A DNA stretch of 63,363 nucleotides, the filler included, from Candidatus Woesearchaeota archaeon (lineage in GTDB: Archaea > Nanobdellota > Nanobdellia > Woesearchaeales > B72-G16), in assembly GCA_003650545.1 (NCBI GenBank). It is 3 parts of 3 records of this genome, joined end to end, with 100 filler letters (N's around TTAATTAATTAA, not from the genome) between each part and the next. Parts side by side here need not be neighbours in the genome. Positions count along the whole stretch, not along the records: positions 45,308 to 63,363 come from QMQO01000026.1; 2 more parts are not named here. One strand, 5' to 3'. How positions within the stretch are numbered: the stretch's first letter is position 1; every line of letters begins with the position of its first letter. A program made the translations under genes and the position numbers. The notes under the pieces are model-generated. The model saw nothing but the letters and a program-made list of their open reading frames with translations, had not been told where the DNA came from and searched no databases. This document shows, one piece after another, positions 45,208-61,924 of the stretch.

Positions 45208-45307
45208 NNNNNNNNNNNNNNNNNNNNNNNNNNNNNNNNNNNNNNNNNNNNTTAATTAATTAANNNNNNNNNNNNNNNNNNNNNNNNNNNNNNNNNNNNN
45301 NNNNNNN
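45208..45307. other. artificial contig spacer
   Basis: N-run flanking TTAATTAATTAA. Confidence 0.97.
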
Positions 45308-45359
45308 GAGTTTTCCTTCCTATAATTTTACCTCTCTTCATGGTAATACCTCCTTTGGG

Positions 45360-45680
45360 TTATTGCAGCAACTGCACCGCGGGCTCAAGACCCCCGATAA
45401 TCGTATCGAGCTTCACCCGCACATCATCGATCTCACCAGCCTCTAACGAAGCTTTGAGTTCTTTCAGACGCAATACAGCTTCCTTTATGGTTTCTGTATA
45501 GTCGTCCACCTCAGCTTCGAGCTCTCCAATGCGATCATCAAGCCTGTCTATCGTATCGTATGCATCATCTGCTCTGTCTGTTGCATCAGAGAGTTCATTC
45601 TCAAGCTCGGAGATGTATTTTTCGTATTCATCTACTGATTCGTGGATGGCAAATATCTCTTTATTGGACATCTTAGACAT
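45360..45680 (-). CDS. acidic coiled-coil protein
   Basis: heptad pattern; AAAGGAGG SD upstream. Confidence 0.55.
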   Translation of the reverse strand: MSKMSNKEIFAIHESVDEYEKYISELENELSDATDRADDAYDTIDRLDDRIGELEAEVDDYTETIKEAVLRLKELKASLEAGEIDDVRVKLDTIIGGLEPAVQLLQ

Positions 45681-46253
45681 ATATAAAACCTCCTTTATTT
45701 ATTTTACCCTGGCCGAACCCGGGTTCAGCACACCCCCTGACATGCCGTCAGACGCACAGAAATGCCCCTAGAATCCATTTTCTCATGCGGGGGTATACCT
45801 ATATATGGGTTCGATCAGTATGGGTTACGGTGTACTAAAAGGTACACCAGACTTATTTTAATTACGACAACGAAAATTGAAGGAAACAGTTTATGAAGAC
45901 TAAAAGTGTAACGTCACATCACTCACCAAATTTCGCATCAGACGCACAGAAATGGGTCTAGAATCCATTTTGTGTAATTTTTACCCATATAAAAAGGATA
46001 TGTCGAAAGTTCGACAGCAGATACATGCATACGATGCATGCATATATTGAACACTTTCGGAGTGATCACCCCCCTGGCCCCCGGAGGGGGGTCTTAGCAC
46101 CCCAAAATGTTCCCTTCTCTCCCCTTCTTCTCCCTTCCTTCTTCCCTTCTCTTATATATCTCATCCTATTAACTATCCCTTATTATCCCCTCTTATCCTT
46201 CATATTAATCGTGCATCATTGCCTTCGATATATATATATAGAGTGTTTTCTTC

Positions 46254-46304
46254 GTAATATATAATTACAGTCTTCGTTTCACTTCGACTGTAATTATATA
46301 TTAC
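46254..46304. repeat. perfect 19-bp inverted repeat
   Basis: GTAATATATAATTACAGTC-13nt-GACTGTAATTATATATTAC. Confidence 0.9.
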
Positions 46305-46417
46305 TTATACTATTAATATCTAACACAGAGCTTCGATCGAAGGCATTTTTACGCGAAGAAAGAGGGTGAAGACGGGGATATTTCGCGCAAAAGTGTCTAA
46401 TTTCGCGAGGGAAAAGT

Positions 46418-46479
46418 TCAGGGTATATATATTAATACATCAATAATAGATTATTAATATATTAATATATATACCCTGA
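46418..46479. repeat. 62-bp near-perfect AT-rich palindrome
   Basis: 20-bp perfect arms TCAGGGTATATATATTAATA / TATTAATATATATACCCTGA with further inner pairing. Confidence 0.9.
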
Positions 46480-47098
46480 GGCGCACTTTACAAGGTTCAC
46501 AGACGGGGACAACCACTGCTGCACTGCGCTGACCCTTGAGGGGTCAGCGCTGCTACGCAAGCCGGCGGTTAGTGTGTATAGCCGGGAGTGTATGCATGCA
46601 CTTCCGGGGGGAAGCATATTTACCCTCATCTGAGAGAAGAGTTTCCCCAAAGCTTCCTCCATAGATCCTTCGTGTAACTATTACAGTAAGGTGCATTTTG
46701 GCACGGTACTTGCGCACATCCCTTCGACAAGCTCGGGGGATGAGCTACTGCCCCCTGACCCCCGGAGGGGGGTTCAGGTTACACATCTGACATGCCGTCA
46801 GACGCACGTAAAGGGGTCTAGAATCCATTTACTCATGCGGGGGTATACTATAGTATACCCCGACTCCGAAAATGCAATACAGCGAAACCTCGTGCGTCTG
46901 AGAGCATTTTAGCGTCTATACGATGGAGCAGCCATCATGCATTTCGAAAAAATTTCGATATTATGCACCCCCCGCCCCCCGGAGGGGGGCAAAAAAAAAG
47001 AAAAGAAGTAAAGTATAGTTCCCATGTATATCGAAAAAATTTCGTTGTTCTCCGGCAGGGCTCACACATGGCAAGCCCTACCGGAGTAACGTTTATTT

Positions 47099-47515
47099 TC
47101 AGAATGTCTCTTCAGCTTTGGTGTCAGTGGCTGGAGTTACCTCCGATTCCACTGCCACCTCGGCCTCTGCTTCGGGCTCGGCTTCGGAGCGTGGTCGTGG
47201 CCCGAACGTTACGTTCTGCGCGACCACTTCGGTTATATATCTCCGTTGGCCGTTGCTCTCATACGAGCGACTGGCCAAGCGTCCCTCTACAGTTATGCTC
47301 CGGCCTTTGCCGAGATACTCGGCGATGTTCTCTGCCTGTTTTCCCCACGCGACCACGCGCAGGAAATCGGCAGACTTTACCAAGTCGCCGCTGGCAGTCC
47401 GATACTGCCTGTTAACGGCGATCGTAAAGTTCGCCACCGGGCGTCCGGACTGCGTGTAACGCAGTTCGGGATCCCGCACTAAATTCCCGCTTAAAATTAC
47501 ACGATTGATATTCAT
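47099..47515 (-). CDS. ssb: single-stranded DNA-binding protein
   Basis: NRVILSGNLVRDPELRYT, AWGKQAE, VEGRL, acidic tail. Confidence 0.95.
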   Translation of the reverse strand: MNINRVILSGNLVRDPELRYTQSGRPVANFTIAVNRQYRTASGDLVKSADFLRVVAWGKQAENIAEYLGKGRSITVEGRLASRSYESNGQRRYITEVVAQNVTFGPRPRSEAEPEAEAEVAVESEVTPATDTKAEETF

Positions 47516-48731
47516 TATTCTACCTCCTTTTCTACGACGTTTTCAGCCAATGTGGCTTCTACGTCGTCTTTTGTTGTGTTAATAACAGCTTTCCTTTCGC
47601 CCTCCAGCTTGTCTGCTAAAGAGCGAACTAACTTTGCCGCCGTGCCTCTGTTCTGCTCGACGGCTTTCCCGATCTCAGACCTGATGTCTGATGCTAATTT
47701 CATCAGGTCAGCAATTATTATATTCATACTAATTCCTCCTTTTCGATGATGATCTCGTCGACCACCTTGTTGAAGGCAGCCTCGGTCTCATCCTTCTCTT
47801 TGGCCGCGCTCTCATTTATCATCCCTGCTGCAGCCAGAAACAGGGTGATAATATCAGAAGCCATCCTTTCCAGTTTGGCTTCCTCGTTTTTATCTAAATT
47901 TTCTGGAAATATTATATTCATCTTTTACCTCCTTCCAGGGATGCGAACCAGTCCCATTTTCTCCAGCATCCACAGTAGCTTCACACTGGGATGCTCGGAG
48001 ACTGATGGACATCCCTTCTTGAGCCGAATCAGCGACCTGACCCGGCTTATAACATAATTTTTCTCGTCGTCCGTCGGACTGAGGATGACGTCCTCTTCCC
48101 TGCGACGAGAGTCTCTAACCACGATGGATATCGGCATGATGAGGGCATTGCCATCCTCATCGCACCGATATCCATTTATCACTCTATCTCCCCTTTCTTC
48201 GAGCTCGGTCCTATTGAGATCTAAATTCATCGATCTCCTCCAGGAGCTTCCTGAGTGCCTCGTCGCCGCCTTCGCGCCATGCTCTGCGGAGGATGCACTC
48301 ATGAGCGAGCTCTGCTAATTCATCGAACTCACTCTTTTCTTCTGCGGCGACGGGGAGAAGATCGCCACAGATGCACTCCCCATACTGACGACCATCGGAC
48401 AGTGTCCTGATGGTGTCATCGGGGGCATTAATCTCTTTGCCGCCACAAAAGACGCATGGAGTAGCGGCATATACCTTTTTTCTACGCATAAAAAATCACC
48501 TCCTTATGCGTACTTATCCTCGATTTCTTTCTCCACGACACCAGCGGCATCGTAGATGTCGAGGATATCATCCATTGACAATTTTATGCCCTTTTTCTTC
48601 AGTACGTGAATTATGTCACGTAACTGTGACGGCTTTATTAGATGTTCTTTTACGATTATTTTCTTCTTCATTGTTTCCTCCTTTCGGGGCTCTGTGCAAG
48701 CCCCAATTGATATATCTCTAATGGGAGCCAT
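47515..48731 (-). CDS. run of small hypothetical phage genes (47515-47727, 47724-47921, 47925-48230, 48211-48489, 48504-48671)
   Basis: overlapping stop/start, SD sequences; 48211-48489 has Cys pairs. Confidence 0.55.
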
Positions 48732-48816
48732 GCAAGCACCACTCGGCGCTTCCCAGCACAGCTCCCATGTACTTCCACACCGATCTTGGGTTCCAGAGAG
48801 TTAGATCAGAGTCTTT

Positions 48817-49161
48817 TTACCTTACGTAGACGATGATCTTCCCTCTCAGTTCACCCAGGGTGAAGGCATATACCTTTACCCGTTTGCTTCCCTCTCCTAC
48901 ACCACCGAAGAGGGAGCGGATAAAGGCATATTTCTCTCCCTCGTTAAGTTCTCTGAGGGAAGAGTCCTCGCCCAGAAGAGCCTTTTCAAGCTCATCAGCG
49001 AAGGACGCCTTCGTCTCCCATGTATCTAGCACGAGAGACTCCGCTGGGTGAATGAAATCCAGGATCCTCTTACCTGTCGAATAAGACAGGTATCCTGACG
49101 GGATAACTTTAGTCCCATCAGGAATGATCCTGAACTCCATACCCAAGACCGAGAATGTCAT
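48817..49161 (-). CDS. hypothetical protein, paralog of 51660-51998
   Basis: shared FRIIPDGT..VPSGYLSYSTG.RILDFI.P. Confidence 0.75.
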   Translation of the reverse strand: MTFSVLGMEFRIIPDGTKVIPSGYLSYSTGKRILDFIHPAESLVLDTWETKASFADELEKALLGEDSSLRELNEGEKYAFIRSLFGGVGEGSKRVKVYAFTLGELRGKIIVYVR

Positions 49162-49217
49162 TTAGTTATCACCTCCTTTTCTATTTTCTAATGGTCATAT
49201 TGTCTGCGAATTTATTC

Positions 49218-49568
49218 TTACTTCATATCACTGAAGAAGAATACTCGCAGTTTCCCATTTTTGTCTGGTTTGATCATCCCCGTGATTTGGGCTCCTTTGA
49301 ATCCATACTCATTGTCCGAGGATACAATCTCTTCCAATGTGATGTATACCATAGAGCAATTTGGATCCACTTTCTCTGGATTACCCTGTACAACTCTGAT
49401 GTTGCACTTCAGTTCCGTAGGATAATCTAGCATGGTCAGGTCGCCATTTTTGGACTTAGATACTATTACATTGGATCCCTCCTTAGGCTCTCTTTCCCCA
49501 TGGACTATTTCATGCGCGGCCTTTGCGATACTATTCATCTTCGAATTTGCACTAAAGAACTTAGCCAT
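49218..49568 (-). CDS. hypothetical protein
   Basis: AAAGGAGG SD. Confidence 0.6.
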   Translation of the reverse strand: MAKFFSANSKMNSIAKAAHEIVHGEREPKEGSNVIVSKSKNGDLTMLDYPTELKCNIRVVQGNPEKVDPNCSMVYITLEEIVSSDNEYGFKGAQITGMIKPDKNGKLRVFFFSDMK

Positions 49569-49632
49569 TTTACTACCTCCTTTCTCGGGGCCAAGCCCAG
49601 TAGGCGTGACCCCGAAATGAAAAAAGAAAGAA

Positions 49633-50121
49633 CTACTTTATCTTCCTCGGATCCAGGACTATGATCTCCAGCTTGCTCTTGCAAGCCTCGATCATCCTCC
49701 TTGTTCCTCCCGGCAGTCCGGCATATACTGCCAGGAGGACGGACCCTTCCTCCTCGAGCAGCCAATCCTTCATGGCTGCATTTCTCTTTTCCATGCAGCC
49801 ACGAAAGTATGGCTTCGAGGAGACCATTCGTACTTCGTGTGCAGCTTCCAGAAGCCGCTTGTATAGTGCTTGCGACTTTGGAGGCCATACTCTGTCCTGG
49901 CCCGCACAGGGCACGAATGCCACATATGGCACTTGTGTCTCTACACAGGCCAGACAGAATAACTGGTCAACGCCCAGCGCCATCCCTGTGCAGCCAACGG
50001 ATGGCTTCAATTCATGAAGTCTCTCCGTCAGCCACCGCAGGATGGCTTTATTCGCCGGGTGATCCAGGTTATACCCACCCGGCAGAGCACGTGGGCGATG
50101 CCCAGTTACTCCGATCCTCAT
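49633..50121 (-). CDS. DUF1273/YspA SLOG-family protein
   Basis: GVTGHRP, GMALGVDQ, RNAAM, GGT. Confidence 0.85.
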   Translation of the reverse strand: MRIGVTGHRPRALPGGYNLDHPANKAILRWLTERLHELKPSVGCTGMALGVDQLFCLACVETQVPYVAFVPCAGQDRVWPPKSQALYKRLLEAAHEVRMVSSKPYFRGCMEKRNAAMKDWLLEEEGSVLLAVYAGLPGGTRRMIEACKSKLEIIVLDPRKIK

Positions 50122-50321
50122 ACTTTTTCACCTCCTTCCATTGTGTCCAGGCCCTTTCGGTCATCCATGGCTTCCAGGGCTTCCTTCAGATACACCTCGA
50201 AAGGCTTCCTTTCCTTTCGGGGGCCTCTCCTGCTCCCATGTGACCCATGTTGCTGTCGTCCCCATGGGAACAGAAGAGGCTGACAACACTTAATTTTCAT
50301 TTTTCCCTTATCACCTCCTTT

Positions 50322-50868
50322 TTACCGAAGGACAATATTATCATCCGGCAACGATACGTGCAACGTTGCAGAGAGGTTGTCCTTCCAGAACCGGAAGTCC
50401 TCCTTGACTCCCTTCCCCTCTACTATAACAAGGGGACCCTTATTGCTGTAATAAAGTAGAGTAAGGGTCATCCCTTCCAGTTCGATGACCGTCCGGTCAT
50501 CGAACTCTTTGATTTCTACTTTTGTCTTTCTCATTTTTACCTCCTTTCTGGACGGCTTATCCCATCCACTTGCCGTCCATGATCAACCACCACCTTTTCT
50601 GGATCTTCCACGGTGGGATGACCCAGAGAATGGCGTGGCCCTCTCGAGCCAGCCGGGCATATCGGCTGTCTTTATATTTATTTTGTTCAATAAACGTAAA
50701 GACGCCGACTCCGGGCTTTCTCACCTGGATCCCCCGACACTTGCCGCCGGAGAATCCAATTACGGGGAAGCCAAGGATCTTGTCCCCTCGTTTTGCTTCG
50801 GGTAACTCTTTGGCTACCCGAAGAGCGAAGTCTTTCAACTTCGCCATATTAACTTTGTTCTTATCCAT
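50322..50868 (-). CDS. two small hypothetical genes (50322-50534, 50557-50868)
   Basis: each with AAAGGAGG SD. Confidence 0.55.
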
Positions 50869-50895
50869 TCTATTTTACCTCCTTTCTCGCCTGGC

Positions 50896-51237
50896 CTATA
50901 TTTTGGCCAGGCTTTTGCACCCAACGATCCGACCCGCATCATCGCGGATCGTCTCGTCGACGACATATATGTCGTCTCGGATGCTGTCAGAGGCCTTTAC
51001 AGCCTCGGCAACAACCCGGGAGACGATATATGCCGTCCCGGGTGCTGGATCGGGCAGGCCGGTTACCTCGCCCATCACAGAGCGATTTACCGGCACATCC
51101 ATCCCATCTATTGGGATGGACCCAATCCGTTCGCGGGTCACCCCGCATCTGGCTATGCCAGACGAGGGGATAACCCGCTCTTCATCCCCCACGATCCTGA
51201 TTTCGTGGGGGGTCAAATTTATGACTCTTTTATTCAT
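50896..51237 (-). CDS. conserved viral hypothetical protein (NLTPH family)
   Basis: INLTPH, PSSG.AR, GLPDP, YIVS, VGC..L. Confidence 0.7.
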   Translation of the reverse strand: MNKRVINLTPHEIRIVGDEERVIPSSGIARCGVTRERIGSIPIDGMDVPVNRSVMGEVTGLPDPAPGTAYIVSRVVAEAVKASDSIRDDIYVVDETIRDDAGRIVGCKSLAKI

Positions 51238-51254
51238 TGTCTATTCCCCTTTTC

Positions 51255-51446
51255 TTATTCTGCTCCACAGAACAGATATCTGTCCTCTACCCAATTAAAG
51301 AGGAGGATGTCTATTGTTTCCCCTCTGGCAACAACGTGTGCTGCCATAACATATCCTCTCTCTTCAAAGAGGACTTCGATATTTACCGAAGCAAAAATGC
51401 TTCGGACATACTTATCAACTTCTCCTAAATTTTTCAGCTTCTCCAT
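51255..51446 (-). CDS. small hypothetical protein
   Basis: AAAGGAGG SD. Confidence 0.55.
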   Translation of the reverse strand: MEKLKNLGEVDKYVRSIFASVNIEVLFEERGYVMAAHVVARGETIDILLFNWVEDRYLFCGAE

Positions 51447-51503
51447 CTCCTACCTCCTTTCTTTTGCCTCGGCCCGAGATGGGATGCTTCCACCGAGGGA
51501 GGA

Positions 51504-51589
51504 TGTTATGCAGCCCGGAAGACGGTGGCTGCTGAGCCGACTCCTTTAACCAACAGCTCTCATGTGTCGGCTCTGTCCATGGAAGCTGT
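51504..51589 (-). ncRNA. pseudoknotted RNA motif, copy B (unclassified)
   Basis: hairpin loop GAGCCGAC pairs with downstream GUCGGCUC; hairpin GCAGCC/GGCUGC. Confidence 0.65.
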
Positions 51590-51596
51590 ATACAGT

Positions 51597-51653
51597 AGGA
51601 GCTCTTGGCGTTACCCAGGGCGGACCACGCGGAGGTGGCTCCCGTACCGCCCC
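51597..51653 (-). ncRNA. minimal HDV-like ribozyme, copy B
   Basis: P1 GGGGCGG/CCGCCCU, P2 GGGAGC/GCUCCU, P3 ACC/GGU, L3 UCCGCGU, GG, J4/2 GCCAA. Confidence 0.85.
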
Positions 51654-51659
51654 AATGTA

Positions 51660-51998
51660 TTAGTAAAGGATCACCTTTCCCGTGATCCCTTTCCTGGCAA
51701 AGGCATATACCTTTACCCGTTCCGATCCTTTACCGACACCTCCGAAGAGGTTCCGGATAAATCGGAACTTTTCACCCTCATCCAGTGCAACAAGGGACGA
51801 TGCCTGGCCACTGAGAGCCTTTTCGAGCTCTTCAGCGAACCATTGGCGCTCGTCCCATGCTGCCAGGACGAGGGACTGCCCCGGATATATAAAGTCCAGG
51901 ATCCTCCTACCTGTCGAATAGGACAGGTAACCTGACGGAACAACACGGGTCCCATCAGGTATGATCCTGAACTCATGGCCCAGGACAGCTCCTATCAC
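51660..51998 (-). CDS. hypothetical protein, paralog of 48817-49161
   Basis: sequence similarity; SD. Confidence 0.75.
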   Translation of the reverse strand: MIGAVLGHEFRIIPDGTRVVPSGYLSYSTGRRILDFIYPGQSLVLAAWDERQWFAEELEKALSGQASSLVALDEGEKFRFIRNLFGGVGKGSERVKVYAFARKGITGKVILY

Positions 51999-52042
51999 TT
52001 TTTGTCACCTCCTTTCTGGGATACAATCCCTGATAAAGGAAA

Positions 52043-52228
52043 CTATTTTCTAGCTTCCTCCATCATAAGCCGATGAGTTTTCCTCATCAGCTTGTTGAGC
52101 TGACTGATCCTAGCCAGCTCCCTCTGGGAATAGAATCCCCGAACTTTCGCCCGGGCATCTATTCCCTTTATCTCCCGCAGGAGATCTTTCTTAAGTTCTC
52201 CTGCAAGGAGCAGACTTTTCAAATTCAT
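52043..52228 (-). CDS. small basic hypothetical protein
   Basis: AAGGAGGTGA SD. Confidence 0.55.
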   Translation of the reverse strand: MNLKSLLLAGELKKDLLREIKGIDARAKVRGFYSQRELARISQLNKLMRKTHRLMMEEARK

Positions 52229-52376
52229 CTATTTCACCTCCTTCCTTCGAGGCCTTTTATGGCCTCTTTCAAAAACTCCGAAAAAGGCTTTTTGGCCTTC
52301 TTCGAAGTTCTCCTGCTCCCATGTGGAGCCCGTTTCCTGGGTCCACGTGGGAACAGGACTTTTCCCATGGGGGCTA

Positions 52377-52799
52377 TCAATGTCCCCTAAGAAGGGCCTC
52401 GAAAGGCCTGTTCTTCGGGGTTGCTTCTCGCAACCTCCTGATACAGGCTTTCATCTCGGCCTTCTTTCTAGCCTTCTCAGCTTTCGCCTTGAAGGCTGCC
52501 TCCCTCTTGAGGAGGTCTTTATAGTACTCCTCAAGAGAGAGAGACAGGACGATCCCTGTCTCTCTTGCCAGCCTCTCGGCCTTCCTAACGAGCCGATTGG
52601 CTTCCTTTCGGGCCTCCCTGGTCCAGGGGACCCGATTGACGGCCCTTTCGGCCTCTGCGATGGCCTTCTTGGCCATCTTTTTCTGCCGCTTTTTGGCGGC
52701 AGCCTCTTTGGCGGCTTTACGCCGCCTTAGATCCTCCTCCAGGAGGATCGCAAACGGAGTTTCAATCCCTTTTACAACTAATCCTTTTTGGTCCATCAT
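52377..52799 (-). CDS. Ala/Lys/Arg-rich helical protein
   Basis: start moved to SD-supported ATG (MMDQK). Confidence 0.6.
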   Translation of the reverse strand: MMDQKGLVVKGIETPFAILLEEDLRRRKAAKEAAAKKRQKKMAKKAIAEAERAVNRVPWTREARKEANRLVRKAERLARETGIVLSLSLEEYYKDLLKREAAFKAKAEKARKKAEMKACIRRLREATPKNRPFEALLRGH

Positions 52800-52842
52800 T
52801 TTGGACCTCCTTTCTGGGGCTGAAAAGAAATAATCACGACAT

Positions 52843-52927
52843 GCTGCATGCAGCTCCTCCATACAGCTGCCGGAGCCGATTTCCATCTACAGCAGCTCCC
52901 ATGCATCGGCTCAAAAATGAGAGCTGT
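52843..52927 (-). ncRNA. pseudoknotted RNA motif, copy A (unclassified)
   Basis: loop GAGCCGAU pairs with AUCGGCUC; hairpin GCAGCU/AGCUGC; covaries with copy B. Confidence 0.65.
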
Positions 52928-52933
52928 TCCATT

Positions 52934-52989
52934 GGGAGCTCTTGGCGTTACCCAGCCCGAACCACGTGGAGGTGGCTCCCTCTCGGGCC
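52934..52989 (-). ncRNA. minimal HDV-like ribozyme, copy A
   Basis: P1 GGCCCGA/UCGGGCU, P2 GGGAGC/GCUCCC, P3 ACC/GGU, L3 UCCACGU, GG, J4/2 GCCAA. Confidence 0.85.
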
Positions 52990-53579
52990 ATCGCTGAGCA
53001 CTACTGTTTGCTCAGTAGGCGTTGGTCACCCGGACGCACTCCCCGGGTAAAAAAAGAAAATGTTTTATTTTGACCCCCTTTACCTGATGAACCACGTAAC
53101 TGGTCAGAGGTGTCTAACCAGTCCGGGCTCATCAGGCAGCCTCATCTGAGGAGAAGGGAAATTAATCTCTTCCCCTCAGATGAGCCTTCAGGTTCCTCCT
53201 CCTCCTCACGGAGAAGGGAACCCGAAGGTCCGGAGAGGTCTCCTTCCTCCGGAGATATACCAATCCCCTTTGGACGAAGACCTCTCCTTGGCATTGGAGA
53301 AGGTCGAGTCGGTCTTGTGAGACCAATCCGACCTTCCCGATGCAAGAAACGTCTCTCATCTCTTTCACCTCCTTTCGGATTATTGTTTTATGCAAAATGC
53401 AAGGGATTAATCCACTTATCCCATTCCTGCAATCACGCTAAGGACCGGAACCAGCCCCGAGGAACATATCCCATATATATTCCTCGATTCTCATCTAGGC
53501 ATCCCCCTTCATGCTCCTCCGGATAACTTCGACGGAGAAGAACATGAAGGTTTCAGCCTTCGACCGACTGACTCTCATC

Positions 53580-53762
53580 CTATGAGAGCCAGTCGATCTC
53601 CTCTTCCTCCCTCTTAAGGAAGGAGAGTATCTCTTCCTTGAGATACTCTTTTCCTTCCCAATCGAGGGAATGGAGGACTTCATGTAGCAATTTTCTTGCT
53701 ACAATTATCCTCCATCCCTCGGAGGAGGAGGAAGAGGGATTAACACGAGGATAATCCCTCAT
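53580..53762 (-). CDS. small hypothetical protein
   Basis: AAAGGAGGTGA SD. Confidence 0.45.
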   Translation of the reverse strand: MRDYPRVNPSSSSSEGWRIIVARKLLHEVLHSLDWEGKEYLKEEILSFLKREEEEIDWLS

Positions 53763-53898
53763 GGGCGATCACCTCCTTTCTTCCTCCCAATAGGACCGCC
53801 CCTGCTATTGGGAGGTTATTTTTTCGAGGTCCCATGTATCACGCTCTCCCATAAGACTGGGGGGCGTGAAACAAAGAACCCCGAATAAAAAAATACAT

Positions 53899-54118
53899 AC
53901 CATTCCCCGTGAAAATTGGAACCCATTTTTGTTCCACACAAACCATTCCCCGTGAAAATTGCAACAAAAAATTGCTGCACGTAAGATATTCCCCGCGAAA
54001 AATAGTAGAAAAATCTGTCATACATAAGCCTCTCCCTTGCAAACCATCCCGCGTAGAATTTACGTTTGTGTTAGTAAAGAAATCCATCCCGCGTAAACCA
54101 TTCCCCGTGAAAATTGCA
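53899..54118. repeat. iteron/operator-like direct repeats
   Basis: CCATTCCCCGTGAAAATTG x3 (about 53900, 53943, 54098) plus CCATCCCGCGTA x2. Confidence 0.8.
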
Positions 54119-54178
54119 CCAGAAAATTGCAGCAAATAATTGCAGTAAAAAATAATGGTGTTTAGTATGTTTTTGTAC

Positions 54179-54207
54179 TTGACTGCGGGGAGGTGGTGTG
54201 GTATAAT
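54179..54207 (+). promoter_or_regulatory. sigma70/sigmaA promoter with extended -10
   Basis: TTGACT-17nt-TATAAT with TG at -15/-14, heading the plus-strand arm. Confidence 0.8.
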
Positions 54208-54395
54208 GATAGTAGGATGACAAATAAAATAAATCTTCTTTTTTAGCCGCCGTTTTTTTGGGAGCTGAGCAAGGGGGTATTGCTTACTTTACAGTTCTAC
54301 TAATTAGGGTCCGGGTCACATCGAAGCTGCCGTGGTTCCCGCCCGTGTCTGCGGGGCTTCGATGGACCCGGCTAAAAAGTATGGGAGGTGTCAAG

Positions 54396-54764
54396 ATGGA
54401 AGATAAATCAACCAGACGCAAGAGACGCAAAAAATACTTTTTGAGGGCACTTGCTGCAGCAGCCGGCATAGTTATACTCGGAATATTAATGTTCGGCCTC
54501 GAATATACCGCTTTGATGTGGAACAAATTTTTTGGTCCCCGTAAAGAAAGTGTGAGGAGAACAGTATTTAAAGCAACCAGATCCTATAACGAAGCTAAAC
54601 TCCAGGATCTCACAAGGTATCGGCTCCAGTATCTGAGAGCAACTACAGAGGAAGAAAAAAATGCCCTGGCCTCGACTATAAGACATCAGTTTGCTGAGTA
54701 TGATGAAAATAAATTGCCGCCGGAGCTTAGGGACTTTTTGAGGAATATCAAATATGGAGGCTAG
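54396..54764 (+). CDS. single-TM phage protein
   Basis: GGAGGTG SD before MEDK; basic N-terminus then TM. Confidence 0.65.
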   Translation: MEDKSTRRKRRKKYFLRALAAAAGIVILGILMFGLEYTALMWNKFFGPRKESVRRTVFKATRSYNEAKLQDLTRYRLQYLRATTEEEKNALASTIRHQFAEYDENKLPPELRDFLRNIKYGG

Positions 54765-54804
54765 AGGAAGTAAGAGGGATAAAATAAGAAGGAGGTGAGA
54801 GTAA

Positions 54805-55317
54805 ATGAAGGAACTTAAGCTGAAAAAACTTCTAGCAGCTGTTCTGATTACTGGAACAGCATTTGGGTTATTGGGTTGCAGAATACCTGATAGAGACGCA
54901 GAAAAAATAATGAATAAAAGAACTAAGGAGGCCATGAAAGAAGCTTATGCCCAAATAGGTATGCCGGCTATTAAGAACTTCCAGGAACGAAAATTAGCCA
55001 AGATGATCTTCGAGCTGAGAGATCGCGAAGACCTTATTTGTTACGCATACCTTAAAAGCGATTATACGGGGAAGCTTGTTTACCTTGGGAAATGTATAGG
55101 CTATGGTCTTCCCTACTCAGTGCAGTATACTAATCCAATGCAAGTAGTGCGATTAATTGGCGGAAAATATGGTACAATTCCACAAGCAGATCCTAATGGA
55201 CTATATATGCCCACCGGATTGTCTGCTACATGGTTGATGATGCTAGATAAAGATGGTAATCCGAGGCCGGTATATATAGAACCGGAGATAGTTGTGTCGC
55301 CGTTTCCATTGCACTGA
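54805..55317 (+). CDS. phage lipoprotein
   Basis: lipobox LLGC; GYGLPYSVQYTNP, QADPNGLY. Confidence 0.7.
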   Translation: MKELKLKKLLAAVLITGTAFGLLGCRIPDRDAEKIMNKRTKEAMKEAYAQIGMPAIKNFQERKLAKMIFELRDREDLICYAYLKSDYTGKLVYLGKCIGYGLPYSVQYTNPMQVVRLIGGKYGTIPQADPNGLYMPTGLSATWLMMLDKDGNPRPVYIEPEIVVSPFPLH

Positions 55318-55375
55318 GGCTGTAAAACGTGTATTTTAGTCCAAAAAAAATAATCATTATAAGGAGGTTTTTATT

Positions 55376-55588
55376 ATGCCTAATAGCTATACTAATCCTA
55401 AGGGTGTTACCTATTATTTCCACAAAGTGGGACATTTGAAATTCTTTTCCAAGGATGAATACTACAAGGGCAGGCCGCCCGATGAGATACCGAAAGATTG
55501 CATAATAGTGGTTAATAAAAAAACCGGCCTTCCCTTCGTGAAGAAGCTCAAAGAGGTCAAGCAGAATGACGATAAGGGTGTTACGTGA
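55376..55588 (+). CDS. small hypothetical protein
   Basis: AAGGAGG SD; NKKTGLPFVKK. Confidence 0.6.
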   Translation: MPNSYTNPKGVTYYFHKVGHLKFFSKDEYYKGRPPDEIPKDCIIVVNKKTGLPFVKKLKEVKQNDDKGVT

Positions 55589-55650
55589 GCCGCGTAGTGC
55601 AAACACGTGGTGCAATAAAGTCTAAATAATTCAAAAAAAGCTATCGGAGG

Positions 55651-56454
55651 ATGGATGGTATGACGGTTAGGCCTTATTACGAAAAAGGAAACTTTAAACT
55701 GTATCACGGTGACTGTGTAGACGTAATGAAATCTTTTCCCGCCGAAAGTTTCGATATGATTTTCGCTGATCCGCCATACCATCTGTCCAACGGCGGCTTT
55801 ACCTGCCACGGAGGGAAGAGAGTGTCTGTTAATAAAGGAGAGTGGGATAGAAGCATGGGTGCAGCCGATGACTTTAACTTCCATTTGAGGTGGATCAAAG
55901 CATGCAGAAGAGTTCTGAAGAAAAACGGAACTATCTGGATCAGCGGTACCTATCACTCTATCTATGCATGCGGATTTGCTCTCCAGCTTGCAGGATACAG
56001 GATCCTTAATGACATAACATGGTATAAACCCAATGCGTCTCCCAATCTGGGATGCAGATGTTTCACTGCAAGTCATGAGTCACTGATCTGGGCATCGAAA
56101 GATCCAGATGCCAGACACACGTTCAATTATGATGCGATGAAAAATGGTAACTGGCACGAGAGGGATATGTTGAAAAAACAGGGGAAACAGATGCGTTCTG
56201 TCTGGTCCATTGCTACACCTAAACAGAGTGAAAAAAAGTCTGGTAAACATCCGGCGCAGAAGCCTGAAGAGTTGCTGAGGAGGATTATTCTGGCCGCCAC
56301 TGATGAGGGTGACTTGATCCTTGATCCGTTTACGGGAAGCTCAACAACCGGCATGGTCGCCTGTATGCACTGTAGAGGGTTCGTTGGTGTAGATACCGAA
56401 AAAGACTACCTCGACCTGTCTGTCAGACGGTTTGAGTCTGTTTTTTGTGTATAG
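55651..56454 (+). CDS. beta-class N6/N4 DNA methyltransferase (DpnB-like)
   Basis: FADPPY..SNGG...VSVNKGEWD before HPAQKP and DPFTGSSTT. Confidence 0.9.
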   Translation: MDGMTVRPYYEKGNFKLYHGDCVDVMKSFPAESFDMIFADPPYHLSNGGFTCHGGKRVSVNKGEWDRSMGAADDFNFHLRWIKACRRVLKKNGTIWISGTYHSIYACGFALQLAGYRILNDITWYKPNASPNLGCRCFTASHESLIWASKDPDARHTFNYDAMKNGNWHERDMLKKQGKQMRSVWSIATPKQSEKKSGKHPAQKPEELLRRIILAATDEGDLILDPFTGSSTTGMVACMHCRGFVGVDTEKDYLDLSVRRFESVFCV

Positions 56455-56506
56455 TTCTCCGAACCTGTTTACAAGACGATGCTTCGTAATACTGGAGGTG
56501 ATTTAG

Positions 56507-56845
56507 TTGGATATTGGGAGTTTTCCCGATGTTTTCGATATTACTGCTGCAGTTGTAAATACCATAGCTCATCAGAAAGGATGGTGGGATGTTCCTAGAG
56601 AGGATGGAACAGCTGTAGCATTGATGCACAGTGAATTGTCAGAGGCATTGGACTATATGAGGAATGGAAATCCTCCCTCCGACCATATACCTGAATACAG
56701 TGGCGTGGAAGAAGAATTAGCTGATGTCATAATAAGGATAATGGATTATGCCGCGGAGAAGGGTTATGATGTCGGTAGGGCCTTGTTGGCTAAGATTGAA
56801 TATAATGCGCAAAGGGAGTATCGCCATGGGGGTAAGATATTTTAG
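56507..56845 (+). CDS. MazG-like NTP pyrophosphohydrolase
   Basis: LMHSELSEALD, EEELADVIIRIMD, K..YN..R. Confidence 0.8.
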   Translation: MDIGSFPDVFDITAAVVNTIAHQKGWWDVPREDGTAVALMHSELSEALDYMRNGNPPSDHIPEYSGVEEELADVIIRIMDYAAEKGYDVGRALLAKIEYNAQREYRHGGKIF

Positions 56846-56962
56846 ACTTGCAAGGGGGTGCTGACAATGAAGTATGGATTGGACAGTTTTCTTCTTGGTG
56901 CGACTTTGCTAACGATTTTTGCATGGGTGACATATCTGTTGATAATATGGATGTGATGTATC

Positions 56963-57187
56963 ATGCCGACTTATGTATATTACTGTGAAAACTGTAAAAA
57001 AGAATTTGAGGTTTTTCAGGGGATTAACGATCCTCCGCTTAAAAAGTGCCCCAAGTGTGGCACAAAGCCCGAGCGGCTGATAGGAACAGGCGGCGGCATC
57101 ATATTCAAAGGGAAGGGGTTTTATGCAACCGATTATAGAAGCGAAGAATACAAAGCAAAAAAAAGTAAAGAGCGGACAGAAGGATAA
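56963..57187 (+). CDS. FmdB-family Zn-ribbon protein
   Basis: MPTYVYYCENC..CPKC..IFKGKGFYATDY. Confidence 0.9.
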   Translation: MPTYVYYCENCKKEFEVFQGINDPPLKKCPKCGTKPERLIGTGGGIIFKGKGFYATDYRSEEYKAKKSKERTEG

Positions 57188-57212
57188 ATATCGCAGAGGT
57201 ATAGAATACCTC

Positions 57213-58151
57213 ATGAACTGTGTAACCACCCAGTGGATTATCCTTACTGAGAATAATTCCTCTGTCCGCAGTTTTGTGGATGCGAACTGGCAGAAATGGG
57301 TTATAGATCCGGAGGCGCTGATTGCTGTTACTCTGCTTGTAGGAAGGTTCTCTCCGCCGCTGTTTGACAGGGCCCTTAGATGGATAGTGAAAAATGGTTC
57401 GTCTGTCTCTGTTCCCCGTCTTTTGAAGGTAATGAAAATATTTCCCCCGCTTATCGATGCAAGGATCGCGGGAGGTATATCTGATTATGTGTGTGAATTT
57501 GGAAGTCTCGGAGATGATGCCATGGATGACTGGATTTACATGGGTTCTGTTGCAAGAGAATGTATAGAGAGGTCTTCAAGGAAAGATGCAAGTGTTGCAT
57601 TTTTTCTTGGAGTTGATGAATATATTGACGCTGAAGGAGCATTCCCGGATGCTTCCGCAGGCGGCAGAAATGCTGATCCGATATTTGAGAGATGGGGAGT
57701 TATTAGACATAGGTTCTCTGCCGGCTTTCATACTATTGGCAATAGTTCCGTTCCTGCCGGCATAAGGATCAGAATCGGGGAGAAACTGGATTCGAGAGTT
57801 CTTGGTGATATAATTGCGTATATCGGTATAGCAAAAAGCCGCCATTTTGGTACATCCAGAAGCCTGGCAGAAAATCTCTATTATCCTCGCGATAGAATAT
57901 CAGACGCTGTTGAGGATGGCATAGACAGAGGGTTACTGCGCAAGGGCAGGAACGATTATTTTTCTCTGTCTGATTCAGGGTTTGACCTTCTGGCCGAGGA
58001 GGGGTGTGAGGATGCACTGTGGAATACTGACTGGGTAATCACATATTCGGGTCTTTCGTTCGGATTGTCGTTTGTTTCTGGATACTTTGATGAAGAGATG
58101 GATATGCTCTATACTGAGCTGTGTAATCTGCTTGAAGGAGGTGACAAATGA
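57213..58151 (+). CDS. hypothetical protein with C-terminal wHTH-like segment
   Basis: IDPEAL..R.SP.LFD.AL.W...NG. Confidence 0.5.
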   Translation: MNCVTTQWIILTENNSSVRSFVDANWQKWVIDPEALIAVTLLVGRFSPPLFDRALRWIVKNGSSVSVPRLLKVMKIFPPLIDARIAGGISDYVCEFGSLGDDAMDDWIYMGSVARECIERSSRKDASVAFFLGVDEYIDAEGAFPDASAGGRNADPIFERWGVIRHRFSAGFHTIGNSSVPAGIRIRIGEKLDSRVLGDIIAYIGIAKSRHFGTSRSLAENLYYPRDRISDAVEDGIDRGLLRKGRNDYFSLSDSGFDLLAEEGCEDALWNTDWVITYSGLSFGLSFVSGYFDEEMDMLYTELCNLLEGGDK

Positions 58152-58429
58152 TGAAAGAGACAGGAGACGTTGATATAGTGAAATGCGCTAAATGCGGTTC
58201 GCTGGATATTGTTGCAAAGATAAGAGAGACGAGATATGTCATGCTTTCGTATATGAAGCTTGATTCAGGAGAAATAGTAAGAGGCTTTGAAAGTGTTTCT
58301 ATTGGAGACAGCGGGGGTTTGTCGGCGGATGTAGAAATAATTGAATATATAGGGTGCAATAAATGCAATTCCAGAGATATTGTTCCGGCTACCGCCGATG
58401 ATGTAGATGCGGACTCGATAGATGCATAG
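58148..58429 (+). CDS. Zn-ribbon protein
   Basis: CAKC..CNKC. Confidence 0.55.
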   Translation: MMKETGDVDIVKCAKCGSLDIVAKIRETRYVMLSYMKLDSGEIVRGFESVSIGDSGGLSADVEIIEYIGCNKCNSRDIVPATADDVDADSIDA

Positions 58430-58458
58430 TAAATCGGGAAGACTATAAGGAGATCAAA

Positions 58459-58968
58459 ATGACCAGAGATGATATTTTTAAGATACGGGATATAATAGAG
58501 GCCAGACTTCCTGATTGTTATCCTCCTATTACTATAGTTCTGGAAGAAGATCTCCCATCCATGGTGAATATCATAGTTCTGGAACAAATGGGGGGTGACT
58601 ATGATGTAAAGACATATGATACAATTTACAAGGAATTGGATGGGGTTGCAGATGATGTATTGAAAAGAACGGTAGGGATTGCTGAATGGGATGTTGGTTC
58701 AAGTGATGGAAGGTATATAGTCCATTTCAATTATGATGCATTAAAAGATGAGTCACCTCCCGTTGTGGCATTCTATATCCTCCATGAAATATATCATGGA
58801 TATCAAGGTGAGTATATGCCCGAATTGGTGGCTCGAGTATCTGATCACACATGGCTTGAGTATTTGGAAGATGAGGCTGACAGATTTGCTTCGAAATGGA
58901 TTGATAAAATGCTTGATGAGGGACTGTTGCCGATAGATGGTTCACTTGAAGACTTTGGAAGTAATTAA
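58459..58968 (+). CDS. ImmA/IrrE-like metallopeptidase
   Basis: ILHEIYH...EDEADRFA. Confidence 0.7.
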   Translation: MTRDDIFKIRDIIEARLPDCYPPITIVLEEDLPSMVNIIVLEQMGGDYDVKTYDTIYKELDGVADDVLKRTVGIAEWDVGSSDGRYIVHFNYDALKDESPPVVAFYILHEIYHGYQGEYMPELVARVSDHTWLEYLEDEADRFASKWIDKMLDEGLLPIDGSLEDFGSN

Positions 58969-59208
58969 GGGGGTATAATTATGATTAGAGATTATAATGT
59001 TCCTGTGTCTTTGAGTTGTGATGGATCGTGTGAGAACTGTAATAACTTTGATGATGACGATAATATTGGATGCTGTGTTAATCTTCTTAAGGTTATTGAA
59101 GGAAACACCGATCCTGTTCCCGATGATGTTCGGAATATTTATGATGATCAGATTACCTACACTTGAGAAAAAGTGTAGGTAATTTGATCATTTAGTTTTG
59201 CAAAGGGT

Positions 59209-59436
59209 GTGATCATAGTGCCAATTAAATGTTTAAGATGTGATGATGTTTTGCCCTCCAATACCATGGGAATGCCTCTTCAGTGTATTTGCGGCGCTAT
59301 AACTGTTGTTGGAGATGATCTTCAACTGAGGGTATTTCGAACATTTGGTGATGGCCCAGGAGAAGGGTATGAATTTGTTACAGAGGATGAAGCGGAGAAA
59401 GCAAGAAGAAAAGGTAAACTGAGAGGAAAGGAGTGA
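59209..59436 (+). CDS. small Cys-containing protein
   Basis: IKCLRCDD..CICGAI.V.G. Confidence 0.5.
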   Translation: MIIVPIKCLRCDDVLPSNTMGMPLQCICGAITVVGDDLQLRVFRTFGDGPGEGYEFVTEDEAEKARRKGKLRGKE

Positions 59437-59445
59437 ATTAGAGTA

Positions 59446-61476
59446 ATGTCTTTCCCCGATTTTATGACTGACCGCGCGAAATTTGTTTTGAACCAGAGAT
59501 ATCTTCTGACTGTGGATGGTATAAAGGAAGAATGGAGCGATTTATGCGGCCGTGTTGCGCGGTGTGTAGGAAATACTGTAGATGAGGTTGATGTATTCTA
59601 TGACATGATGTACAATCTTAGATTTCTCCCGAACAGTCCGACGCTGTTCAATGCAGGGAAGAAAGACGGGCAGCTGTTTGCCTGTTTTTTCCTTCCTCTT
59701 GAAGATAACATGGAAAGTATAATGGATACTCTTAAATATTCCGTTATGATATATAAAAGCGGAGGGGGAGTAGGCATTAATTTTTCTTCACTAAGGCCGG
59801 CTGGATCGCCGGTGAAAGGAACCAATGGTATAGCTTCCGGCGTTGTTTCTTTCATGAGAGCATATGACAGTATGATTTCAGAAATAAAATCAGGCGGCGT
59901 GAGAAGGGGGGCGGCCATAGGTATACTGGATGTTGATCATCCGGAGGTTTTAAATTTTATAAAAGCAAAAACGAAGGAAGGGGAGATATCTAATTTTAAT
60001 ATATCTGTTGCTGTAACTGATAGCTTTATGTCAGATGTTATAGGGGGCAGGCTTGCAAAATCTGTGGGTTCTGGTGCAACGGGGGAAATATGGGATGCCA
60101 TAGTTACCAATGCATGGCGTAATGGCGAGCCGGGACTTCTTTTTATGGACACTATCAACAGAATGAATCCTATAAAAAAATATGGTCCTTTGAAAGGATG
60201 CAATCCGTGCGGTGAGCTGCCCCTTCATCCGTGGGGATCATGCTGTCTGGGATCTATAAATCTTTCTCTTTTTGTCAGGGATGGCGAGTTTCTATACGAT
60301 AAGTTTGAAAAAACGGTCAGAGACAGCGTACTTTTCCTGGACAGAGTGATAGATGCAACTGTTTATCCGTATCCGCAGATAGAGAGAGTGTCAAAGGAGA
60401 CCAGGAAAATAGGTCTGGGTGTGATGGGGTTTGCAGACATGTTGCTGAAGATGAAGATTACCTATGGCAGCAATGAATCTTTTGATGTGGCAGAAGATAT
60501 TGTTTCTGTAATGAGAAAGATTGCTGAAGATGAATCTGTAAAGCTGGCTGAACTTTATGGGACATGCAAGGCGGTTGATGATGAAGGAATTATGCCTCCC
60601 AGAAGGAACTCCACTCTGCTTACTATGGCGCCCACTGGAAGTCTTAGTTTGATTGCAGGATGTTCCCCCGGAATAGAGCCGAATTTTGCCTTTTCTGAAA
60701 AGAGGAATCTGAAAGAGTCACTTGGTGCTGATCTGGTATGGAGACATCCTCTGGCGGCAGAATATGAAACTCTTCCTCCATATTTTGTCACAGCGCATGA
60801 TGTTGCTCCTCTTGATCATGTCAGGATGCAGAGTGTTTTCCAGAAATATGTTGATAACAGTATTTCCAAGACCGTAAATATGCCAAGTGAGTCTTCCATA
60901 GAAGATGTTGCTGACGTCTATAAAAAAGCATTTGAGTGGGGGTGCAAGGGAATAACCATATACAGGGACGGAAGCAGGAAATTGCAGATAATGGAAGATG
61001 CGGTGAAACCAAAGGATACAACCAGGTTTATGGAGCCGAGAGAGAGACCTGAAATGACGATGGGTGTTACGGAATGTATACATACAGGGTGTGGAAAGAT
61101 GTATGTTACAGTTAACAGAGATGAGGAGGGCATATGTGAAGTTTTTGCCAAGCTGGGGAAAAGCGGAGGCTGTGTATCCGGATTTATGGATGCGCTTAGC
61201 AGAATTATCAGCATGGCATTAAGAGCGGGAGTAGACCCCGTAGTTTTGGTGGATCAGCTGAAAGATACAAGATGTCCTAATCCATACGGATTTGGTGATT
61301 CGCAGATATTCAGTTGTCAGGATGGAATAGCAAAAGCGATGATGAAATTTCTGTCTGTTAATCCATCAGGCAAGGATGAGCCATCTATTCAGGGGTTGTG
61401 TCCTGTATGTTCATCTGAGTTGCTGCTTAACGGACGGTGTATCTACTGCCCTGTCTGTGGTGTTTCTAAATGCTGA
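59446..61476 (+). CDS. nrdJ: class II (B12-dependent) ribonucleotide reductase with TSCPD domain
   Basis: PNSPTLFNAG, RRGA, NPCGE, CCLGSIN, APTGS, KGITIYRDGS, C-terminal Zn ribbon. Confidence 0.92.
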   Translation: MSFPDFMTDRAKFVLNQRYLLTVDGIKEEWSDLCGRVARCVGNTVDEVDVFYDMMYNLRFLPNSPTLFNAGKKDGQLFACFFLPLEDNMESIMDTLKYSVMIYKSGGGVGINFSSLRPAGSPVKGTNGIASGVVSFMRAYDSMISEIKSGGVRRGAAIGILDVDHPEVLNFIKAKTKEGEISNFNISVAVTDSFMSDVIGGRLAKSVGSGATGEIWDAIVTNAWRNGEPGLLFMDTINRMNPIKKYGPLKGCNPCGELPLHPWGSCCLGSINLSLFVRDGEFLYDKFEKTVRDSVLFLDRVIDATVYPYPQIERVSKETRKIGLGVMGFADMLLKMKITYGSNESFDVAEDIVSVMRKIAEDESVKLAELYGTCKAVDDEGIMPPRRNSTLLTMAPTGSLSLIAGCSPGIEPNFAFSEKRNLKESLGADLVWRHPLAAEYETLPPYFVTAHDVAPLDHVRMQSVFQKYVDNSISKTVNMPSESSIEDVADVYKKAFEWGCKGITIYRDGSRKLQIMEDAVKPKDTTRFMEPRERPEMTMGVTECIHTGCGKMYVTVNRDEEGICEVFAKLGKSGGCVSGFMDALSRIISMALRAGVDPVVLVDQLKDTRCPNPYGFGDSQIFSCQDGIAKAMMKFLSVNPSGKDEPSIQGLCPVCSSELLLNGRCIYCPVCGVSKC

Positions 61477-61669
61477 TGGGTTTTTGAAGGATTGTTGGTT
61501 GTTTTTTGTGTTTTTTTGTGGTATAATAAGAAATAGAGGGAAAGCTCGTTTTGGGATTGTGGGATAACGATGGCTTGACATCTGCGCGATGATGCCTTCG
61601 CGGTGAGCGGTTCAGAGTAGTTTTAGCCAATCTTATCCCCGTCCCGTAGAAAATTGATCAAGGGGGGGT

Positions 61670-61924
61670 ATGATGGAGGATCCTACATCTAATCCTGTTG
61701 CTGTTGCGATGCACAGGATTTATGTTCTTTTGTATCATATAGTCAGTGATCTGTCTTCTGATGAAAAGTTTGAGAATTTGAAGTATTTCATAGATAATCT
61801 CGGTGAAGATTGTCCTTATGTTTATTCCGCCGCATCTTTGTTTTTTGATTCTCCTATTAACGGAAAACTGAAAGAGTTAGCTGATGCTGTAGCGGAAGGG
61901 AAGGTGTATATGAGAAGTGAGTGA
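61670..61924 (+). CDS. hypothetical protein
   Basis: 84-aa ORF coupled to next gene. Confidence 0.5.
   Translation: MMEDPTSNPVAVAMHRIYVLLYHIVSDLSSDEKFENLKYFIDNLGEDCPYVYSAASLFFDSPINGKLKELADAVAEGKVYMRSE

Follow-up and report, generated by a model that had tools for sequence, protein, structure and literature searches.

Cleavage by ribozymes of the hepatitis delta virus (HDV) type leaves a 2',3'-cyclic phosphate on the upstream RNA and a 5'-hydroxyl (5'-OH) on the downstream RNA. The theta ribozymes are a class of minimal HDV-like ribozymes delimited by means of an RNArobo descriptor (Kienbeck et al., 2024, Nat Commun 15:1559, PMC10879173). Four members linked to transfer RNAs (tRNAs) cleave in vitro, depend on Mg2+ and are inactivated by a C-to-U substitution; the role proposed for the class is 3'-end formation of structured RNA, i.e., of tRNAs, and the false-positive rate of the motif is estimated at about 2.3% or less (PMC10879173). 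The same study counts 526 occurrences without an adjacent tRNA in annotated phage genomes (493 non-coding, more than 96% sense to the nearest gene), most of the isolated matches lying more than 200 nucleotides (nt) from an open reading frame (ORF). None of its 12 theta matches in bacterial genomes stands beside a tRNA, and isolated theta ribozymes are said to 'likely serve unknown biological functions' (PMC10879173). Here we describe two such isolated ribozymes, Rz1 and Rz2, in a 63,363-nt stretch of DNA (the window) filed under assembly GCA_003650545.1 of a Candidatus Woesearchaeota archaeon. Both lie in the leftward gene arm of the third of its joined pieces (piece C), likely a phage-like element, and they probably process the multi-gene transcript of this arm.

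For hammerhead and twister ribozymes that lie close to phage genes in bacteria, processing of polycistronic RNA has been proposed before (PMC6765202). In these bacterial and prophage operons the proposal is the same as the one made here, i.e., processing into parts of differing stability or translation, and it is likewise unproven; the fold is a different one. The HDV-like ribozymes of the R2 and L1Tc elements resemble the present pair in being conserved downstream and variable upstream, the ribozyme defining and capping the 5' end of the downstream RNA (PMC6765202). However, R2 and L1Tc are eukaryotic mobile elements with a reverse transcriptase, whereas at the present locus about 65 nt downstream are shared and the downstream genes differ. 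The drz-Mtgn minimal HDV-like ribozymes from metagenomes have, according to PMC10879173, the HDV fold with a P4 of only a few nt, a likeness to Rz1 and Rz2 that is one of description only.

Anatomy of the two ribozymes

Rz1 occupies positions 52989-52934 and Rz2, the second copy, positions 51653-51597, both on the minus strand. Both are minimal HDV-like (theta-type) ribozymes with predicted cuts 5' of G52989 and 5' of G51653, respectively. The sequences divide without remainder into the segments of the fold, Rz1 into GGCCCGA, GA, GGGAGC, C, ACC, TCCACGT, GGT, TCGGGCT, GG, GTAACG, CCAAGA and GCTCCC, and Rz2 into GGGGCGG, TAC, GGGAGC, C, ACC, TCCGCGT, GGT, CCGCCCT, GG, GTAACG, CCAAGA and GCTCCT. 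In Rz1, helix P1 is formed by 52989-52983/52960-52954, P2 by 52980-52975/52939-52934 and P3 by 52973-52971/52963-52961, with L3 (UCCACGU) at 52970-52964 and the GG of P1.1 at 52953-52952. The corresponding helices of Rz2 lie at 51653-51647/51623-51617 (P1), 51643-51638/51602-51597 (P2) and 51636-51634/51626-51624 (P3), and its L3 reads UCCGCGU. The putative catalytic C is the first position of J4/2, C52945 in Rz1 and C51608 in Rz2, and is followed by C-A-A. Helix pairs were counted by script for these two and for a third ribozyme from Roseburia (see below), and not from the MAFFT alignment, in which the J1/2 gap was misplaced. By this count the pairs are complete in both copies (P1 7/7, P2 6/6, P3 3/3, P1.1 2/2), the first P1 pair being G.U in each. 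The two copies therefore share all elements of an HDV-like fold, namely a 7-bp P1 starting from the cleavage-site G, P2, a 3-bp P3 with a U-CC L3, P1.1, and the J4/2 C with its AA. A re-reading of the sequence found the coordinates, the strand and every element listed for both copies in a preliminary description of this DNA to be correct.

The 51-nt core common to Rz1 and Rz2 is 88% identical. Within P1, three of the seven pairs (positions 3, 4 and 7) are altered on both sides and still paired, C-G being exchanged for G-C twice and A-U for G-C once. A scan of a genome collection, using the core with N at the catalytic position, returned one further locus, a minimal HDV-like ribozyme with the architecture of Rz1 and Rz2 in a Roseburia metagenome-assembled genome (locus L001, 5993-6049, minus strand; record JAMPCH010000014.1). 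This ribozyme carries a C at the J4/2 position that the search pattern had left free. All six P2 pairs are altered on both sides (UUUCCG/CGGAAA) and P1 also differs, its first pair being G-C and not G.U; J4/2 reads CCAATA. The Roseburia ribozyme is located between two same-sense ORFs in a prophage-like region with a phage antirepressor gene, about 700 nt from a tRNA-Gln and not beside it, and no ribozyme follows that tRNA-Gln. The published table of theta ribozymes without tRNA does not contain its P1 segment. P1.1, in which the GG that follows P1 pairs with the CC in L3, is present in all three sequences; as its positions are invariant, they provide no covariation evidence for this helix.

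Chance matches were assessed in two ways. A 31-nt core pattern matched twice in the window and in none of 100 shuffles. A generic HDV-like descriptor, composed after the candidates were known (7-bp P1 starting with G, short J1/2, P2 of 5-7 bp, 3-bp P3, L3 with CC, GG, and a C 4-6 nt before P2'), matched exactly two sites, Rz1 and Rz2, on both strands of the whole 63-kb window and none in each of 40 block shuffles. A version with an altered catalytic base matched the same two loci again, the J4/2 rule being loose.

A comparison with an HDV-like covariance model, which the preliminary description had put forward as a check, was borne out in rank but not in threshold. The two highest bit scores in 51000-53600 belong to RF00094 (HDV_ribozyme), with 33.3 bits (E 0.021) for Rz1 and 27.3 bits (E 0.3) for Rz2, and P1, P3, L3, P1.1 and J4/2 align over the full model (1-89). 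However, both scores remain below the gathering score of 50, at which Rfam gave no match, and Rz1 and Rz2 are accordingly not filed under this family; over the 18-kb piece C, only Rz1 fell below E = 1 (E 0.15). The 26-position P4 segment of the model is matched by only 7 nt in Rz1, and this short P4 probably lowered the score. No other ribozyme class in Rfam reached E<=1 on the 18-kb piece. The absence of a link to tRNAs, also part of the preliminary description, holds true: ARAGORN identified no gene for a tRNA or a transfer-messenger RNA in the window, and Rfam at E<=10 gave 21 matches in 51000-53600, none of them to a tRNA family.

Relation to the published theta ribozymes

Both sequences are found letter for letter, with one occurrence each, in the table of theta ribozymes without tRNA (PMC10879173, file 6; 7,704 entries, 7,705 rows with the header), Rz1 as number 7151 (row 5399) and Rz2 as number 8138 (row 6386). 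They are listed there already segmented by the descriptor, from P1 to a J4/2 starting with C and to P2', and thus belong to the theta class. They stand outside the tRNA-associated subgroup, whose members cleave within +/-5 nt of a tRNA 3' end. In the authors' parse of both, as in entry 568, P2 spans seven positions, with a C.A mismatch adjoining P3, and J4/2 is CCAAG. Both copies being complete minimal motifs, their earlier identification as HDV double pseudoknots was right. In contrast, the novelty implied by treating copies without a tRNA as an exception does not stand, given the 526 published isolated occurrences and the presence of both exact sequences in the non-tRNA table. As both sequences are catalogued and the isolated class has been published, the motif, its two members and their lack of a tRNA are already known.

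With the tRNA-associated thetas, Rz1 and Rz2 have a common core consisting of P3 ACC/GGU, L3 U-CC-ACGU, GG, GUAACG and the C that opens J4/2. The P3-L3 core of Rz1, ACCTCCACGTGGT, occurs 8,134 times in the tRNA-associated table and that of Rz2, ACCTCCGCGTGGT, 71 times (PMC10879173); the most frequent member of that subgroup has ACCTCCACGTGGT and GGGTAACG, as here. The proposed logic is also the same, in that the ribozyme sets the 3' end of the upstream RNA (PMC10879173). The differences are J4/2, which is CUAA there and CCAAG(A) in Rz1 and Rz2, and the lack of a tRNA within 5 nt at the present locus. To the isolated thetas the likeness extends to identical sequences and to the intergenic position in sense orientation. 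However, the catalogue gives sequence and count only, and Rz2 lies 6 nt from a stop codon, whereas most isolated matches are more than 200 nt away from an ORF. A pair of copies around a gene cassette, a shared 3' extension and a hairpin-saturated arm were not found in the parts of PMC10879173 drawn on here. The two ribozymes as such add nothing to the list; their value lies in the context, which is absent from the catalogue entries.

Probable processing of the leftward transcript

We consider it probable that Rz1 and Rz2 are paralogous, active, cis-cleaving theta-type ribozymes within the leftward multi-gene transcript of the phage-like element, and that they process this transcript. Both are in sense orientation and fill gaps in a series of same-sense ORFs whose GGAGG ribosome sites are strong. 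The next ATG after Rz1, at 52799, is 134 nt downstream of it. The predicted cut of Rz2 follows the stop codon of a 112-aa ORF by 6 nt (TAA at 51662-51660, then 6 nt, then G51653), as the preliminary description had stated, and the ribozyme ends 150 nt before the ATG at 51446. Cleavage at both sites would release an RNA of 1,336 nt (51654..52989, minus strand) that begins with Rz1 and its leader and carries four minus-strand ORFs of 140 aa (52799-52377), 48 aa (52380-52234), 61 aa (52228-52043) and 112 aa (51998-51660).

Each of the predicted cuts is preceded by a stable hairpin. A 7-bp hairpin at 52994..53015 (minus strand; z -1.6) ends 4 nt before the Rz1 cut and would be the 3'-terminal structure of the upstream Rz1 cleavage product. 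At the end of the 112-aa gene, a 10-bp hairpin (51665..51691, minus strand; z -4.8, with 0 of 200 shuffles folding as well) ends 11 nt before the Rz2 cut, and the Roseburia ribozyme has a hairpin ending 3 nt before its cut (z -6.4). A U-run is absent after all three.

In the alignment, the homology between Rz1 and Rz2 does not include the 5' strand of P1; it starts with that of P2 and extends to about 65 nt past the ribozyme, while the sequences upstream of P1 are unrelated. The 3' extension of Rz1 (52873..52933, minus strand) contains the hairpin GAGCCGAU/AUCGGCUC at 52912-52873 with CAUGGGAGCUG in the loop, and that of Rz2 (51534..51596, minus strand) the hairpin GAGCCGAC/GUCGGCUC at 51573-51534. 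This shared leader hairpin has 8 bp (GAGCCGAY/RUCGGCUC) and includes one compensatory pair (U-A vs C-G); two further compensatory pairs occur elsewhere in the 19-pair consensus. Homology downstream together with divergence upstream fits a module that serves the downstream RNA.

According to the proposed mechanism, each ribozyme would fold during transcription into the nested double pseudoknot and cut 5' of its own first G, a processing that would require neither host RNases nor a halt of transcription. The upstream product would end a few nt past a stable hairpin, giving a terminator-like end without stopping the polymerase, and the downstream product would start with the compact ribozyme fold and the shared leader of about 65 nt. 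By the two cuts, the stability and translation of the released four-gene RNA (52989-51654) would be uncoupled from those of its neighbours. We infer that both copies are catalytic, that transcription runs through each of them, and that stability or translation is affected; that the transcript is an early mRNA and that it is processed into units with 5'-OH ends, as the preliminary description put it, is likewise a reasonable assumption.

Several observations weigh against this reading. The covariation is based on three sequences, two of which are paralogues, and the RF00094 scores do not reach the gathering score. When Rz1 is folded together with its leader, the 3' strand of P2 is paired in the minimum free energy (MFE) structure with CAUGGGAGCU further downstream, a possible competitor of the ribozyme fold. 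No promoter of the leftward arm was found, a sigma-70 scan giving 14 sites versus 13.0 expected. Virion or structural genes are absent from the 18-kb piece C. In addition, a 5'-OH can mark RNA for decay in Bacillota, as in the case of the glmS product and RNase J1. Cleavage could thus raise or lower the stability of the RNA.

The pairing of the P2 3' strand with CAUGGGAGCU is not kept in Rz2. Neither is its pairing with CATGGGAGC, and a switch model was dropped for this reason. CATGGGAGC is present in four exact copies and one variant (CATGAGAGC), all on the minus strand (52903, 52323, 51564, 50240 and 48769) and each 95-119 nt upstream of a start codon. Two copies are located in paralogous small ORFs, where they code for HGS, and two in paralogous leaders, suggesting that the recurrence is largely a matter of paralogy. 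The 112-aa protein (51660-51998, minus strand) has a paralogue of 114 aa (48817-49161, minus strand; 67% identity over 112 aa); no third ribozyme follows the gene of this paralogue, also by the generic descriptor. A second pair of small paralogous genes is located at 52234-52380 and 50118-50300 (both minus strand; 44% over 41 aa), and neither pair has a family match.

In the parts of PMC10879173 drawn on here, the function of the non-tRNA half of the theta class is left open. The present locus is a defined test case, with two copies bracketing a four-gene RNA, hairpins before the cuts, a shared leader and a structured operon. If C-to-U mutants were to alter the amounts or half-lives of the flanking messages, this would be the first function for isolated theta ribozymes.

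Alternative explanations

The ribozymes could instead mainly make the 3' ends of structured upstream RNA. Rz1 would then free a hairpin-rich RNA of at least about 430 nt, a stable non-coding RNA or decoy, and the downstream mRNA would be a by-product. Rz1 is indeed preceded by about 430 nt of extreme hairpin structure, which is not a normal gene end: the stretch 52990..53420 (minus strand) has an MFE of -218.7 kcal/mol versus -141.3 kcal/mol in shuffles (z -12.2), and its 431 nt contain seven consecutive predicted hairpins, five long (about 17-25 pairs each) and two short, of which the last is the one 4 nt from the cut. The hairpin 3 nt before the Roseburia cut and the published role of the class in 3'-end formation of structured RNA (PMC10879173) point in the same direction. 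However, Rz2 is located directly behind an ordinary protein gene, and the structured stretch before Rz1 overlaps a 65-aa ORF (53359-53162) with a strong Shine-Dalgarno sequence. Moreover, hairpin saturation is typical of the whole arm and not of this stretch only, no Rfam family scores above chance on the upstream stretch, and the sequence conserved between the copies lies downstream of the cut and not upstream. We therefore regard this explanation as unlikely.

Rz1 and Rz2 could also act in the manner of glmS, the 5'-OH exposing the downstream RNA to decay, so that the genes after each ribozyme would be expressed less than those before it, a polarity that would be fixed. They share their cleavage chemistry with glmS, where cleavage strongly lowers expression (PMC6765202), and the proteins of piece C are most similar to those of Bacillota phages. 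Yet the 5' G left by HDV-type cleavage is paired in P1 within a compact fold, the leader conserved behind the two ribozymes points to a use of the downstream RNA, and the ribozymes are devoid of a ligand-sensing domain. Down-regulation of this kind appears rather improbable.

That the two are inactive relics, e.g., of tRNA-linked ribozymes after loss of the tRNA, or chance look-alikes, would agree with the Rfam scores below threshold, the lack of a tRNA in the window and the single occurrence of each sequence in the published catalogue. Against this, the generic descriptor matched in 0 of 40 shuffles, every position of the catalytic core is kept, and three double compensatory changes in P1 separate paralogues that otherwise differ at few core positions; the published motif, too, has a false-positive rate of about 2.3% or less (PMC10879173). 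We consider decay or chance very unlikely.

A unit bracketed by two ribozymes of the same sense, each with its cut at its own 5' end, has the topology of rolling-circle processing, and the excised 1,336-nt RNA, with its 5'-OH and 2',3'-cyclic phosphate, could be circularised by an RtcB-type ligase into an exonuclease-proof message, as in the unit-length processing of delta virus, but this is extremely improbable, as no end-joining complementarity is seen, the rejoined junction would recreate a cleavable Rz1, piece C carries no ligase gene and we know of no precedent in phages.

Hairpin saturation of the leftward arm

The leftward arm (45900..53940, minus strand; about 50% GC), which houses Rz1 and Rz2, is saturated with hairpins. 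In gene-length folds compared with dinucleotide-preserving shuffles, its gene for a YpsA-like protein gave z -12.2 and the 140-aa gene z -13.0, versus -0.8 for a gene of the right arm. In 120-nt windows (mononucleotide shuffles), the sense strand of the left arm had a median z of -3.97, with 49% of 55 windows below -4. Its antisense strand had a median of -3.32, the right arm one of -0.36, and the two archaeal pieces of the window gave -0.17 and -0.32. Close inverted repeats numbered 31 in the left arm versus 4 and 10 in equal lengths of the right arm and of an archaeal stretch, respectively, and our own counting gave 30 hairpins in the left arm, whereas 20 shuffles had 2.2 on average and never more than 7.

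On the sense strand, the stems of the left arm contain 34 G.U and 14 A.C oppositions, an excess that leans towards selection on the sense RNA. The idea that the hairpins belong to a conjugative leading region was rejected, since the same ratio fits RNA better than a transferred template strand. Paralogous genes of the arm share hairpins, and 11 of 90 consensus pairs are altered on both sides and kept, a count that leans in favour of compensation as the 90-pair consensus was derived from the same two paralogous sequences. One of these kept pairs was swapped from A-U to U-A by two synonymous changes. Of the features of the locus, the more unusual one is that hairpins saturate a coding arm of 8 kb and are maintained between paralogues by compensatory synonymous changes. 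A limited literature search, which is not proof of absence, found no relevant description of a hairpin-saturated early arm of a phage, and to our knowledge no phage arm with comparable hairpin saturation has been described.

An RNA with few single-stranded sites offers little to host endonucleases, which makes self-processing more plausible. More speculatively, and with a low probability, the RNA of the left arm may be largely closed to host and defence endoribonucleases, to Rho and to RNA-guided nucleases. The ribozymes would then be host-independent cut sites, isolated thetas would provide the processing for a structured-mRNA strategy, and the excised RNA might be circular.

Genomic context and host

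Runs of N around TTAATTAATTAA at 24322-24422 and 45208-45308 divide the window into three joined pieces, A, B and C. Owing to these linkers, contiguity of the archaeal-looking pieces with the ribozyme-bearing piece cannot be assumed. Archaeal markers (thermosome, FtsZ, Spt5 (NGN-KOW), L11, DTD2 and XPD) are found on pieces A and B, which have a GC content of 33%, versus 42-50% in piece C (45309-63363).

Piece C comprises about 18 kb with two divergent gene arms. The leftward arm contains about twenty small same-sense ORFs, most of them with GGAGG ribosome sites and without a family match. It begins with a 60-aa gene (53762-53580), followed later by the YpsA/SLOG-like protein, further small ORFs, the single-stranded DNA-binding protein SSB (47515-47099) and a non-coding tail. 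The rightward arm (plus strand) starts after a near-consensus sigma-70 promoter at 54179-54207 (plus strand; TTGACT-17-TATAAT with an upstream TG). Its genes include those for a DNA methylase (267 aa), a MazG-like pyrophosphatase and a ribonucleotide reductase of class II type (676 aa). The methylase and the reductase are intact under code 11, and no recoding of stop codons was apparent, a point of difference from the tRNA-associated thetas.

Within a phage collection, the best protein matches of piece C are to Moorella, Clostridioides, Caldibacillus, Staphylococcus, Paenibacillus and Bacillus phages, and two archaeal-virus records are among the 11 matches of one of its proteins. At the DNA level, the same collection held no match for 51400-53200, only chance matches of 18-23 nt for Rz1 (E = 4), and only a 57-nt stretch of SSB for the whole leftward arm; a plasmid collection contained no DNA relatives. 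Piece C is likely a phage-like element, where 'phage' is based on genes of the replication type. The near-consensus sigma-70 promoter favours a bacterial rather than an archaeal host; we assume a bacterial host, probably a member of the Bacillota. That piece C is an archaeal virus is unlikely in view of the join by N linkers, the difference in GC content, the sigma-70 promoter and the proteins resembling those of Bacillota phages, and its tie to the archaeal pieces looks like mere packaging in one record.

A few further features of the window are recorded here. Between the divergent arms, a unit of about 43 nt with CAATTTTCACGGGGAATGGT occurs four to five times in 53897-54152, and these copies look like iterons or operators. 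In the non-coding tail of piece C (45700-47100), a 34-nt repeat is present three times (45748, 45938 and 46798), together with a pair of 62-nt repeats separated by 1,050 nt and with three GC palindromes of the type CCCCCGGAGGGGGG. A 104-nt 'direct repeat' of the window (D3) is the N/TTAATTAATTAA linker itself. On the archaeal piece B, three paralogous genes of about 310 codons without a family match (32226-33170, 33324-34268 and 35997-36908, plus strand) share 70-97% DNA identity over 300-nt stretches and adjoin an AAA_5 ATPase.

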